Origin: Catajapyx aquilonaris
Taxonomy: Eukaryota
Length of the DNA: 51,793 nt
Assembly: GCA_000934665.2 (NCBI GenBank)
Contig: JYFJ02002745.1
Location: 1 to 51,793 of the forward strand
Direction: 5' to 3'
The number at the start of each line of letters is the position of its first letter. Within the stretch, counting starts at the first letter, position 1. Below are positions 11,020 through 18,998 of this stretch, piece after piece. The notes beneath the pieces were generated by a model. That model had not been told where the DNA came from. It saw only the letters and a program-made list of their open reading frames with translations, and did not search any database. The position numbers and the translations under genes were made by a program.

Positions 11020-11934
11020 ATGGCTTCCTCCAGACGCGGCCGTCCCCCTCCGGAAGAGTCAGGATGGATCCCCGGATTAGGGGACAACCGACCCCAGCCT
11101 CGTCTTCTAGGCAAATCCATGTTCGGCTATGTACCGGACGCATATTCTAACAAAGGACCAGTCCTTCCGTCCGAAAGGAATTCGGCCGAATCCAGCCGAG
11201 CCACGTCCAGGGTGAGTTTCTTTGTTAAAGTTGGACAACAGATGTCGCCAGTATGTACTGTCCATCTACTGTCCAATTTGTGTACCTGATACGACCTCAT
11301 TTCGGGCATTACGGCAGTGCGTGACCTCAGCCCAATAATGGTCCGGGTGTCATTAACCCTGTACGACACGCATGAAAAGGGATGCAAATGTGAAAGGGGT
11401 CAAGTGGAAATGACCCCCCGAGAGAAAGGGGGCCGAATAAATGAAGGGGGGGGGGGGTGGCAGTTGTGTGTTCATCCCCCCCTTGTTGTGTTTCCTTTCA
11501 CGCTCAACCCCGTTTATTGTTGCGAATCACAACTGTGCGGAATTCGTGCCAAATTATTAATTGGGAAGGTAATGCGTACATAACGGGGTACGGAAAATGC
11601 TCTGAACCTGAAACCCCGTATTTTTACCAACAATTGTTTCTGGGAGTTGCCTTATAAAAATGTAGTGGTACGCCATATTATGATAACAATCTGATTGCTT
11701 TATAATACAGGATACGTCTGCGGTTTCAAGTCCAACCGCATCGGTGAAACGGGCCGTTGACAAGATGACGGAAGAAATGCTGCAGGTACGGCTCGGTTAT
11801 TCTCTCGGTAAATTAAATTTTGCATAAACTCGGTTCTGTTCCAGGTGACTCTGTCTAGTGCCAACGGTATCGTGACAGAGGAAATCCGGGTGCAAACCCT
11901 GGGACAAGATGAGGCCATACCTTTTACAGACAAG
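11020..11934 (+). CDS. CRMP: Candidate alternative long N-terminus of the CRMP/dihydropyrimidinase gene. Exons 11020-11211, 11711-11785, 11845-11934, spliced to 14389
   Basis: Three stop-free, phase-0 exons with canonical sites (AGG|gtgagt, tacag|GAT, CAG|gtacgg, ttccag|GTG, AAG|gtaagt). They encode MASSRRG...SMFGYVPDAYSNK...DTSAVSSP..., resembling recalled motifs of vertebrate long CRMP isoforms. Confidence 0.65.
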
Positions 11935-12654
11935 GTAAGTTATAATTTCCCATAATATTTCACCTATACTACTGTATCGATGGGGTACATCCGCAGAAAA
12001 ACTGGCCAAATTTAATAAAATGGTGACTCAGCATCGATGGGTTATGTCGCAGTGTGTCATTGCGCAATTACTCATGGTTTAATCCAATCTGGACAGGGGG
12101 GTGTATGACTCGTACATTTTTCCGGAGCCGAAATTAATATTTTCCGCTCATTAATCAGCAGCTCAAGGTTGCTCCTGGTAGCTAATTGGTGCTGCCAATT
12201 TTACAATCATGTACTTCCCACGGTAACCTAATTATCTTTGTAGTCGATAATCATTGTTGCGAAATCCTTTGATTTACAACATATTATTATAGCAAAGTGG
12301 GTCGCAATTTTTATGGGCAAAATACGGTACAGTCTGTGCCAAAAGGAATTGGCGATTATTCATTCCGGCAGTACCACACATGCGAACTGGACTCGTGTGG
12401 GTTCGGCACGGTTCGGGTTTTGGATCGATGTGAATGTAGGAGGCTCAACCCCCAGCCATTTTCTAGTCAGAGGCAGGAAGGGCGGACCTTTGAAAAAGAA
12501 GAGCAGGGGTGGTGGTGAGGTGGTTCAAAAGAGGGTGGGAGGGGGTACCCCAGAAAGGAAAAAAAAAAAAAGTGGCCTTCCCGCCTTGTTTGTTAGCCAG
12601 TTTTGAGGTGGACGCTCCCGTGGTCGGTTGGTTGTCAGTGTTGGTCAAAATAAG

Positions 12655-15600: not shown

Positions 15601-18600
15601 ATACCATTGTTGGCAAAGGGTTAGGTGCAATGGAAGCTGCTTTCATTGTGTAATTTTGTTATAATTCTGCACACAATTCTGCACACAATAATGCACGCAA
15701 AAAGCTTCATTTTACTTCAGCAAAATGTTGGAACGCATTTTCAGGTATTTGTTTCTTGGTTGAGGTGTTGTATCAGTTGGATTGATTTAATGATTTGAAT
15801 TATGTACGCCTCTATTTTTTGTACAATTCTTTTGCATGACTTTTCATTTTTCCAAGGTGGATTGTCCCTTGTACATAGTGCATGTTATGAGCAAATCAGC
15901 TGGTGATGTTGTAGCAGAGAAAAAGAAAAGTGGTTGCGTAGTGTTCGGTGAGCCCATAGCCAGCAGCCTGGGCACAGATGGCACCCATTACTGGCACAAG
16001 TGCTGGAGTCATGCAGCAGCTCATGTCATGGGCCCCCCTCTCAGACCAGACCCAACCACCCCTGAATACCTTATGGACCTCCTTGGAAAGTAAGTTGGAA
16101 GAAGGAAGTTGCTCCAGCGATTCTACTAACACACCTTGAAGAATCCTGGGTGTCTTGCACCGATATCCCTACCCTTGCCTTGTGGTGGTCATTATGCTGG
16201 TTTCCTCCCCTGCCAATGTTGGTATTATGCACACATGATAGGGCATAGTTTAGGGTTGTTAGCATGTTAGATGGGAGAAAAGGTGATGAACTAGGGGAAC
16301 CAACCTGTGCTTCCAGTTGACCTGCCCACTTTATGTGGTGCCTGTGACAAGCAAGATGTCAGCTGATGTACTGGCCATGAAGAAGCGGGATGGGGCAGTT
16401 GTGTTTGGGGAAACAACCCCTGCTGCTATAGGGTCGGATGGATCTCACTACTGGAACAAGTGCTGGCAGCATGCAGCAGCACATGTGGTCAGTCCTCCCT
16501 TGAGACCTGACCCTACCACCTCGGATCATTTGCTGGCTAAAATAGCAGCGTAAGTTGGTTGCAGGATGGGGTGTACAGAAGGGAATGGGCATTATTTGTG
16601 ATTTATGTTTCCCAAATCCTAAACCTTGACCTATTTTCGTTACTAACATTTTGTTTACCTTCTATGACATGAAAGCTGACATCTCATCATAGTTTATACA
16701 CAGTAATATCTGTGGGTGGTTTCATGATAGTGTGTTTACTTCCTGGCAGTGATATATTGTGCTGATTGGATGCCAGGCTTCACTGTGAAAAGGAGAAATA
16801 TCAACCATGTTTATTTGAACTTTTATTGCATCACTGCATATTGTTATTGAAATAGATTTAAAAATAGCTGATAAATGATTTATTGTGGTTTCATGTCCGC
16901 AGTGGTGCTCTGGACACAACAGGATCAGACCATTGCACTTTCTCAACAAGCCAGAAGGCGATAGGGAAGAATGACTTCACCAAGATCCCGAATGGTGTGA
17001 ATGGGGTGGAGGAGAGAATGTCGATTATCTGGGAGAAGGGAGTCCATGCAGGCAAAATGGATCCCTCTCGCTTTGTGGCTGTGACCAGTGCCAATACGGC
17101 CAAGATATTCAACTTGTACCCACAGAAAGGGCGCATTGACGTTGGGAGTGATGGAGACGTTGTTGTCTGGAATCCTAATCAGACCATAGAGATTTCTGCC
17201 AAGACGCACAACAATGCTGTTGATTTCAATATCTTTGAGGTATGGTTACATAACAATGATGCACTTAATGTTTATTACTTGCAGCATGCACCAGCTGAAG
17301 GCCTTCGATCACTAATGAACACAATTTACAGGGCATGGTATGCCATGGGGTCCCTGAGTATGTGATTGTCAATGGACGCATTTGTGTGGAGGAAGGTCAG
17401 TTGAAGGCTGTACATGGGTTTGGCCAGTTTGTGCCCACCCCACCTTTCCCACCATTTGTGTATGACAAAGTCAAGGCTAGGGAAGAGGTATGTGTAGATT
17501 GCAGATGTACTGGTGCAAAGAATAATGCATTGTTGCCTACAGCAAAGAAAGCCAAATGCTGTGGTGCGGGATGGGTCTGAGCCAATGCCTCAACCAATTG
17601 GCCGGGTGACATTGGTGACCGAATCAAACGGGCCACCACCCAGCCAGGCTAATGGCCACCCAAGACCAGTTGAAGAGAGCCCTGTAACAGCCACCAACAT
17701 TGAGGACCAGTTAGCGAAGGCACCCATGAAGGCACCTGGAGTCCGTGATATGCAAGAGTCAACCTTCAGCATCAGTGGGGACATGCCAAGTAAGTGGTTT
17801 CGTATGTGCAACGCATCCTACTGCATTGATATCGCATGTCCCTGGTGATGGTTCCTGTATATCGTGCAACAAAAGAGGAGCATTATCTCGCACGATTGTT
17901 GAGTTTGAGCAGCTTCTGTCATCTTGCCCCAGGTACTACAAGCGACGATTCCCGTGCAAGTTCCCCTCCTCTTCGCCCAGCAGTTCGAGTCAAAGCTCCT
18001 CCAGGAGGTTTCTCTTCTGGACTCTGGTGAACTGTGAACAGAGTACGAACCACTTCCTACTAATAATGTGGATATAAATTAATGAGATTTTCACTTGATG
18101 CAAACTACTTGGGAAGTCAGTAAAGTACCTAGGGTCACTACTAAGCGCAACATTGGTGCATGGTTTGCCAACATTAAACCTAAATTGCTTGTGTCTGTAG
18201 TTTTTTTTGCATCTGGAACCATCCATACATTATGTATCACCACTTCATGTTGCATGGCACCTCAACACTGCAAGTGTCAAACACCAGTCACAATATTCAT
18301 ACAAATAAGAGCCATCACATAACGCACACCAAGCATACTGTTCTTAAAACAAGGCAACTCGGTTCTTTTACACTAGAAGGGCTTTTGATGTGGTTGTTCA
18401 ATACATCCAACTCAGCCATAGTGGGAAGTGACCAGGAGTTAAGCTACGTTGTTTAATGCCATGAGCAGGTCTGCCTTTCTAGTGTAACTGTACCTATGTT
18501 TCAATGGGCCAAGATACTGTACCTGCTTTGATATAATTAAAAGCTTCCTGTACGAAATGTACAGGATTTTCAAAGTGTGCTGCAAAAGATGTGTTGCTTA

Positions 18601-18998
18601 TTTTTCAAGTGGGAGAGAAATTTTGTTCGAGTACACACCATTATTGGACATATCAGCACATTATTATTGGAGACACTTTAATTGACAGTATTGTTGTGAG
18701 TGTCCATGATGATGATGTGCTACAACAGTACAGTGTCACACTTCAGCAATCATGTTCCATCTCATAAAGTAATATATGGAAGGTTCCCTCACCCTGCATT
18801 GCCTACTCTTGTAGTTGTTGCACTCTCCCATAGTTTGGGCCATTGGTTAAATCTCCGTTGTGAAGTTGGACAATACTGTTGCCTGAAAACATCGTCACTT
18901 AATGACTACTTAATCCTCTTCCAGATGACGAAGCTTCTCGCAGCTCAATTCGAGTTAGGAATCCACCAGGAGGGCGTTCGTCAGGAGGATTTTGGTAG
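12655..18998 (+). CDS. CRMP: Dihydropyrimidinase / collapsin response mediator protein (~600-608 aa short isoforms). Exons 12655-12708, 14389-14483, 14572-14756, 14819-14946, 15006-15185, 15330-15443, [15857-16089 or 16317-16549], 16903-17239, 17332-17487, 17543-17789, [17933-18030 or 18925-18998]
   Basis: N-terminus [29 protein letters not shown] resembles insect CRMP. Amidohydrolase motifs [37 protein letters not shown] and [11 protein letters not shown] are present. All junctions are GT-AG and phase-consistent. Confidence 0.95.
13847..13996 (+). repeat. Minisatellite, ~7 copies of a ~21-bp unit (GTCACTAGAGGAGATGATCAT) in CRMP intron 1
   Basis: Directly visible tandem units that degenerate at both ends. 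Confidence 0.85.
15857..16089 (+). CDS. CRMP: CRMP mutually exclusive exon a (dihydropyrimidinase-type; retains metal-ligand His)
   Basis: 233 nt, [19 protein letters not shown]...[17 protein letters not shown]; sites ccaag|GTG and AA|gtaagt. Confidence 0.9.
16317..16549 (+). CDS. CRMP: CRMP mutually exclusive exon b (CRMP-type; His replaced by Pro)
   Basis: 233 nt with the same phases as exon a, [19 protein letters not shown]...[17 protein letters not shown]; sites ttccag|TTG and GC|gtaagt. Confidence 0.9.
17933..18030 (+). CDS. CRMP: CRMP alternative terminal exon A
   Basis: ccccag|GT, phase 1; encodes [32 protein letters not shown]. Confidence 0.75.
18925..18998 (+). CDS. CRMP: CRMP alternative terminal exon B
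   Basis: cttccag|AT, phase 1; encodes [24 protein letters not shown]. Confidence 0.8.

Follow-up and report, generated by a model that had tools for sequence, protein, structure and literature searches.

Can one gene supply both a dihydropyrimidinase (DHP) and CRMP-like forms of the same protein by choosing among alternative exons? The question is raised by a locus in a 51,793-nt stretch of Catajapyx aquilonaris DNA (contig JYFJ02002745.1, positions 1-51,793, + strand, with 2 N; hereafter the window). Vertebrates divide the catalytic and the non-catalytic roles of this family between DPYS and the CRMP genes, an established division that the initial annotation of the sequence cited in proposing that a single locus here yields several proteins by means of three binary switches. 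The locus is most likely a DHP/CRMP gene that varies its product at three points, namely the N-terminus, exon 7 and the C-terminus, a reading to which we give a probability of roughly 80%. It is one multi-exon animal gene on the + strand, occupying approximately 9.4-19.8 kb of the window with its coding part at 11020-18998, and all combinations of N-terminus, exon 7 and tail read open in a script check, giving proteins of 600-709 amino acids. The proposal is supported to the extent that the locus has three independent alternative regions and that every combination keeps the frame. As a further suggestion, the initial annotation put forward that the choices may be coupled, for example a long start with exon b and one tail in neurons and a short start with exon a for pyrimidine catabolism.

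The structure of the gene is directly observed. The exons were read from the sequence and then checked by script, AG and GT flank the exons at all internal boundaries, and the RNA support comes from the assembled contigs of one public run (X1) of unspecified kind and tissue, with 27% of the sampled words in the run. The contigs are spliced, and 12 of their joints, all GT..AG, agree with the predicted boundaries from the short-form first exon S1 to the terminal exon: the first part of the gene is covered by the joints 12708 to 14389, 14483 to 14572, 14756 to 14819, 14946 to 15006 and 15185 to 15330, and the middle and 3′ part by 15443 to 15857, 16089 to 16903, 17239 to 17332, 17487 to 17543, 17789 to 17933, 18042 to 18925 and 17789 to 18925. 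Two more joints lead from upstream exons to the acceptor of L1, the first coding exon of the long form. The constitutive body consists of exons 2-6 (14389-15443) and exons 8-10 (16903-17789), all placed by the RNA joints: exon 2 (14389-14483, also fixed by its frame), exon 3 (14572-14756), exon 4 (14819-14946), exon 5 (15006-15185), exon 6 (15330-15443), exon 8 (16903-17239), exon 9 (17332-17487) and exon 10 (17543-17789). One contig of 1960 nt starts at 12424 in the 5′ untranslated region (UTR) of the short form, passes through exon 7a and reaches 17789, and a separate contig spans 18925-19843 with an AATAAA at 19825. Contig depth is 107.5 for the route through the tail cassette, 48.6 for the route that skips it, about 2 for the L1 joints and 62.9 for the S1 contig, values that were not used for ranking the isoforms. 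Cover is missing over 11269-12202, which holds exons L2 and L3, and over 16406-16872, which holds the 3′ part of exon 7b and the intron that follows it, so that these intervals provide evidence neither way. Within the intron between S1 and exon 2, a long run of T and one of G, with an N at approximately 13302 (13267-13310), was treated as a repeat in placing the contigs.

The gene belongs to the DHP/CRMP branch of the cyclic amidohydrolases. The TIGR02033 dihydropyrimidinase profile matches exon 8 with 173 bits, exon 7a with 57.6 and exon 7b with 46.3, and hits to Pfam Amidohydro_1 fall in exons 3 and 8, with the matches to Amidohydro_3 and Amidohydro_1 both beginning in exon 3. Of the 1983 candidates scored in a search with exon 8, 1844 reached E<=1e-10; the names or Pfam types of the 120 listed matches are all those of DHP/CRMP or amidohydrolase proteins, and the highest identity among them is 79%. 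The form of the protein that contains exon 7a carries all five metal-ligand motifs, at short-isoform positions 78 (DPHTH, exon 3), 171 (FKMFMAYK, exon 5), 204 (VHAENG, exon 5), 259 (IVHVMS, exon 7a) and 337 (GSDHC, exon 8), and all five align with mouse DPYS. These motifs contribute the HxH pair, the carbamylated lysine, two histidines and the aspartate that serve as metal ligands. When each exon was compared with the whole window by tblastn, the duplicated elements were the exon 7 pair (E 5.9e-32) and the two tails (E 6e-4 to 9e-4) only, and no further DHP-like sequence was found in the 51.8-kb window by this search with all exons.

The duplication with the lower E value is that of exon 7. 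Its two copies, 7a (15857-16089) and 7b (16317-16549), lie 227 nt apart, are each 233 nt long, have the same phase and AG/GT flanks, and are identical at 44 of 77 residues and at 136 of 233 bases. Exon 7a, of the DHP type, is bounded by the observed joints 15443 to 15857 and 16089 to 16903, and its use in RNA is thus directly seen; exon 7b is predicted, from the sequence and from comparison with other animals, to be its mutually exclusive partner. With both copies included the reading frame stops at residue 330, and with neither at residue 275, so that a full-length protein must have exactly one. The choice is between a histidine in the IVHVMS motif of 7a and a proline in the corresponding VVPVTS of 7b, while the remaining four metal-ligand motifs lie in the constitutive exons, and the b form accordingly lacks one metal ligand. 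The pairing of a His with a Pro exon in the initial annotation is therefore upheld, in the case of 7b as a prediction from the sequence. According to the structural literature on DHPs and hydantoinases, the histidine of IVHVMS is a ligand of the binuclear metal centre. This role agrees with two sources on the fly, in whose mutually exclusive exon a zinc-binding histidine is lost or replaced (PMC7954323; bioRxiv 10.1101/292813).

Keeping the metal-centre histidine, exon 7a would be predicted to give an active enzyme, and it is also the copy that resembles known DHPs most closely: against solved structures it reaches 130 bits for DHP, whereas the best CRMP gives 107, a preference for DHP of approximately 24 bits, and it is 86% identical to the His exon of an isopod. 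Exon 7b, which puts a proline at that position and alters 33 of the 77 residues, would cripple the metal site and yield a CRMP-like scaffold, as does exon 9b of the Drosophila CRMP gene. The two forms may also differ in the tissues that use them. The duplication itself is old, the two copies having reached saturation at their synonymous sites (proportion of synonymous differences, pS, 0.86; of nonsynonymous differences, pN, 0.28). With regard to the mechanism of exclusivity, a search for inverted repeats that could provide competing RNA pairing returned four weak ones only, and we claim no docking or selector mechanism. The best of these is an AT-rich repeat of 22 nt with 82% complementarity, whose arms at 15585-15606, in the intron before 7a, and 16842-16863, just before exon 8, bracket both copies of exon 7 and which could be due to chance.

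The exon 7 block is variable in other animals as well. It coincides in full-length alignment with the block in which alone the X1 and X2 isoforms of the ladybird Coccinella differ, beginning after ...ANQ and ending before ...TTGSD, and the same block separates the His-type protein of the tsetse fly Glossina from the non-His proteins of the stalk-eyed fly Teleopsis and the sandfly Phlebotomus. Exon 7b is by this correspondence the positional counterpart of the exon 9a/9b system of Drosophila CRMP. Among 151 aligned segments from 148 proteins, the residue at the histidine site is His in 105, Lys in 20, Arg in seven, Ser in five, Asn in two and Pro, Ala, Thr, Gln and Asp in one each, with a gap in seven; the 39 segments with a residue other than His come from insects, decapods, an ostracod, molluscs, a brachiopod, amphioxus and the vertebrate CRMPs. 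Two public models, from a stick insect (P0001) and an ant (P0002), match exon 7 twice, first with a His and then with a non-His copy, and are probably gene-model errors in which mutually exclusive exons were merged.

At the C-terminus both alternatives are found in RNA. Exon 10, which encodes a disordered-looking C-terminal region, ends in phase 1 at 17789, and its donor is the branch point, from which one route in the contigs leads to 17933 and the other to 18925; the acceptors of both tail exons are in phase 1. The tail-1 cassette exon (17933-18042, 110 nt) encodes 31 residues with a terminal stretch of 10, has its stop at 18028-18030 and splices from 18042 to 18925. When the terminal exon (18925-19843, covered by a contig) is reached directly, it supplies tail 2, of 23 residues with a terminal stretch of 11 and a stop at 18996-18998, and inclusion of tail 1 turns this coding sequence into 3′ UTR. 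The mechanism is thus the inclusion of a cassette with its own stop and not a choice between terminal exons. Two paralogous tails had been proposed from the outset, and both routes are indeed present in RNA, but tail 1 is a stop-bearing cassette rather than a separate terminal exon. Inclusion or skipping of the cassette would swap the last 23-31 residues of the protein, candidate Ser/Thr phosphorylation sites among them, and the differing Ser/Pro and Arg/Ser contexts of the tails suggest that phosphorylation may differ between the forms.

The cassette carries its stop ahead of another exon junction and relegates the tail-2 coding sequence to the 3′ UTR, and its inclusion could on that account be regulatory or non-productive, mainly a change of the 3′ UTR that creates no second functional C-terminus. 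This explanation appears very improbable in the light of what the cassette encodes, namely the C-terminal motif of the family itself: the C-termini of 59 of the 148 DHP/CRMP proteins match it at E<0.01, among them those of mollusc, brachiopod, myriapod and spider DHPs, which tail 1 resembles. Tail 2 for its part resembles insect C-termini, with 78% identity to that of a termite and matches to 63 of the 148 proteins at the same threshold. The two tail peptides are paralogous by tblastn, with the E values given above, and the local alignment of their DNA reaches a score of 36, where 200 shuffles averaged 20.6 and rose to 33 at most. Furthermore, the stop of tail 1 lies merely 12 nt before the last junction, so that decay of the mRNA is not expected under the 50-55 nt rule for the distance from stop to junction, and a comparable alternative tail with its own stop is present in decapod models. 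A second, productive C-terminus thus remains the preferred interpretation of tail 1.

The third variable region is the N-terminus, where the initial annotation had called for a long and a short form, and two alternative coding first exons are found there. Exon L1 (10988-11211) begins its coding part at ATG 11020 and contributes 64 codons up to a GT donor after 11211, exon S1 (12424-12708) begins at ATG 12655 and contributes 18 codons up to 12708, and the ends of both, in phase 0, are compatible with exon 2 at 14389. The use of S1 is directly seen in the joint 12708 to 14389, and so is splicing into L1. Two different non-coding 5′ exons are joined to the same L1 acceptor at 10988: the first, with its 3′ end at 9369-9398, has a donor after 9398 (GT 9399-9400) and a contig joint 9396 to 10986 (cut +2, GT..AG), and the second, an alternative with its 3′ end at 10099-10128, has a donor after 10128 (GT 10129-10130) and a joint 10126 to 10986 (cut +2, GT..AG). 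Each ends close to an in-frame stop, TGA at 9395-9397 and TAA at 10125-10127, and since these stops stand just before the junction in both exons, ATG 11020 is the true start. The long form therefore has a separate upstream first coding exon with a spliced 5′ UTR of its own, whereas the S1 exon is unspliced from 12424. Over the interval 10335-10801, just upstream of L1, the contig word depth sums to 260, with several loose ends at 10769 and 10802, and the interval resembles an expressed repeat; no tRNA or Rfam family was found in scans of 9000-21000, which include it.

Comparison of the peptides with the 148 homologous proteins at E<0.01 is consistent with both starts. The L1 peptide matches the N-terminal parts of 29 of these proteins, long DHP isoforms of insects and decapods, the best being the X2 isoform of the orthopteran Anabrus (64% over 53 amino acids, E 1.7e-20), and its core motif extends more weakly in alignment into the long forms of mollusc, brachiopod, amphioxus, fish and bird. 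The S1 peptide corresponds to the short N-terminus of insects and a horseshoe crab (13 proteins). L2 (11711-11785, 25 codons) and L3 (11845-11934, 30 codons), each in phase 0/0 with AG/GT flanks and an open frame, are probably two more coding exons of the long form, and their use is a prediction. L3 aligns with the segment that immediately precedes exon 2 in the long isoforms of Anabrus, Ischnura and decapods, its single BLAST match being to Oratosquilla (E 0.003), and L2, the weakest part of the structure, matched none of the 148 proteins. Two promoters would thus provide either the long form (L1, probably with L2 and L3, for approximately 46-101 extra residues) or the short form (S1, 18 residues), both splicing to exon 2. 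An L3-like segment is missing in alignment from one decapod isoform, which together with the probable status of L2 and L3 suggests that the N-terminal switch may have more than two states. The initial description is supported as regards the three alternative regions, but calling the switches binary simplifies the case of the N-terminus.

Several observations weigh against a single gene with three working switches. First, the one gene is one locus within the 51.8-kb window, a scope narrower than the whole genome. Next, none of the listed contig joints leaves L1 from 11211, so that L1 is tied to the enzyme body by its phase and by homology. L1 could for this reason be considered part of a separate upstream transcript that is never joined to the enzyme body, in which case no long isoform would exist. 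In insects and decapods, however, long DHP isoforms carry the L1 peptide at their N-terminus, ahead of the same exon-2 sequence, the phase-0 donor of L1 fits L2, L3 and exon 2, and the stops directly upstream in both 5′ exons mark ATG 11020 as a true start, all of which makes a separate transcript extremely improbable and favours the long isoform.

A further observation concerns exon 7b. The sole contig through the exon 7 region uses 7a and joins it straight to exon 8 (16089 to 16903) across 7b, and 7b was not seen in the contigs of the run, which leave its 3′ part (from 16406) without cover. A close relative with such a b exon was not found either, the best identity being 69-70%. On these grounds exon 7b could be a pseudo-exon, left over from an old duplication and no longer used, and the locus an enzyme gene with two real switches only. 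We regard this as distinctly unlikely, as the frame of 7b is open over all 77 codons and pN is just 0.28 despite the saturated pS of 0.86, its length, phase and AG/GT flanks are identical to those of 7a, and in the dihydropyrimidinase profile it still matches the positions that 7a covers (231-302 of TIGR02033). Finally, annotated isoforms of insects and decapods have an alternative non-His exon in exactly this block, in line with 7b as a functional alternative to 7a.

The position of 7b between enzyme and CRMP is also less clear than the loss of the histidine would imply. Against solved structures 7b scores slightly higher to human DHP (94.2 bits) than to any CRMP (91.7 to CRMP4), and it is far nearer to DHP than the insect b exons are, so the b form may, judging by this resemblance, be a partly active or regulatory form of the enzyme. 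The exon 7 tree (52 rows, 77 columns) was built from 45 of the 148 proteins, hand-picked for taxon spread, with segments below 60 amino acids dropped; the 103 proteins not included were for the most part DPYS from mammals and redundant isoforms from decapods. There 7a groups with the malacostracan His exons (support 97/79), while 7b falls outside the 37-row group of His exons (91/91) into an open polytomy with the insect Arg/Ser/Pro exons and the vertebrate CRMPs. Forcing 7a and 7b to be sisters makes the tree 12.1 log-likelihood units worse (approximately unbiased (AU) test, p 0.013), a grouping named for the test only after the tree had been inspected. Grouping 7b with the decapod Lys/Asn exons (AU p 0.35) and uniting the vertebrate DPYS and CRMP proteins in a single clade (AU p 0.16) are not rejected, since the 77-column alignment is too short for this; 7b may accordingly be orthologous to the decapod exons, and the vertebrate CRMPs may or may not share ancestry with b-type exons. 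The tree also runs a real risk of long-branch attraction between relaxed exons. The best identity of 7b to other proteins is at most 70%, and that of exon 8 at most 79%. Lophotrochozoan exon 7 blocks with Lys or Asp at the site, from mollusc and brachiopod models (P0064, P0146, P0138, P0116), fall inside the lophotrochozoan His exons and do not group with the arthropod b exons, a pattern suggestive of separate duplications or of gene conversion among the copies of the exon.

Exon 7b and the CRMPs of fish and bird share a stretch of 13 residues in place of which the His exons have another of 12. Such a resemblance might be expected if 7b belonged to an ancient CRMP-type exon lineage common to the insect b exons and the corresponding segment of vertebrate CRMPs, an origin that we consider unlikely. 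If it were true, an early bilaterian would first have separated DHP from CRMP by duplicating the exon and splicing the copies alternatively, and the two roles would only later have been assigned to distinct genes in vertebrates. The long N-terminus, found from arthropods to vertebrates, would then belong to the same ancestral neuronal isoform, which predicts that the long start is coupled with exon b.

The genes that surround the locus belong to other families. Upstream on the + strand, at 4376-5911 of the window, a frame of 511 codons matches Pfam Peptidase_C101, an OTULIN-type deubiquitinase family, with its C-terminal half (E 2e-53). On the - strand at 21459-22922 lies a single-exon gene of 487 codons that resembles MFS_5 and molybdate-anion transporters, its best named homologue being from a barnacle (63%), followed by those of horseshoe crab, isopod, amphipod and decapod at 55-59%. 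Together with the arthropod-type L1 motif, the short N-terminus and the placing of 7a in the tree, this transporter gene suggests by sequence an arthropod, probably with crustacean affinity. Further along the - strand, frames at 40010-44442 match SAC3/GANP (E 5.5e-93) and the MCM3AP domain of GANP (E 3.2e-10), and the region looks like a multi-exon GANP/MCM3AP-like gene.

The individual components of this design are already known, the exon swap from the fly, the long and short start from vertebrates and the alternative tails from decapod models, and the one unusual feature is the mildly diverged b exon. As this exon is far less diverged than that of the fly, few residue changes separate the two forms, and the locus could provide a clean system for the change from DHP to CRMP. 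It also adds a lineage with crustacean-like sequences to the taxa that combine a His/non-His exon pair with a long N-terminus and duplicated tails, which bears on a possible origin of the DHP/CRMP split in alternative splicing. For annotation, the locus is a reminder that gene callers can fuse both copies of exon 7 into one wrong protein, as the two public models from stick insect and ant appear to illustrate. Our literature searches found the exon pair described for the fly only, and returned no description of the three-part combination or of the decapod isoform models.

A close parallel is the CRMP gene of Drosophila melanogaster, whose mutually exclusive exons 9a and 9b were reportedly described by Morris et al. 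in 2012 (Genetics 191:1227). There, too, the same exon block is present in two copies, one with the metal-binding histidine and the other without it, and the equal lengths of 233 nt, not a multiple of three, impose exclusivity on the copies found here. In the fly, exons 9a and 9b are used in non-neuronal and neuronal cells, respectively, and pyrimidine catabolism is supported by 9a only (PMC8652244), so that in both cases one gene would give a DHP or a CRMP form through one of two tandem paralogous exons. The difference lies in the degree of divergence, as 7b is 57% identical to 7a whereas the b exons of Diptera are approximately 31-33% identical to 7a and 7b, and in the replacing residue, which is Pro here. 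The tail duplication and the conserved long N-terminus are further features of the present gene.

The long N-terminus has its parallel in vertebrate CRMP1, 2 and 4, the long forms of which carry approximately 100 extra N-terminal residues and are minor components (PMC7325199). Here, too, an upstream alternative first coding exon would extend an otherwise identical protein, and a short motif, ...MF..V.DAF..K, aligns between L1 and the long CRMPs of bird and fish, the similarity being restricted to this motif. In the vertebrates, however, the long and short starts belong to dedicated CRMP genes and not to a gene that encodes the enzyme. The decapod DHP isoform sets, represented by the automated NCBI models of Macrobrachium rosenbergii (X1-X23), Scylla and Eriocheir, are similar in overall arrangement, since all three variable regions are found there: a long or short N-terminus, a His or non-His (Lys/Asn) exon 7, and an alternative tail upstream of the canonical one, with both tails in series in the Scylla X8 model. 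Their alternative tail differs in having no PPGG motif, which both tails keep here, and their b exons form a clade of their own (100/99), which lies apart from 7b when the tree is unconstrained. Finally, vertebrate DPYS and DPYSL1-5 (CRMP1-5) share the fold and the same division of labour, with a lysine at the histidine position in the non-catalytic members, but the division was there reached by gene duplication and not by the choice of exons. In place of an enzyme gene and a family of cytoskeletal regulators, the Catajapyx locus would then represent a compact natural example in which one gene provides for both.

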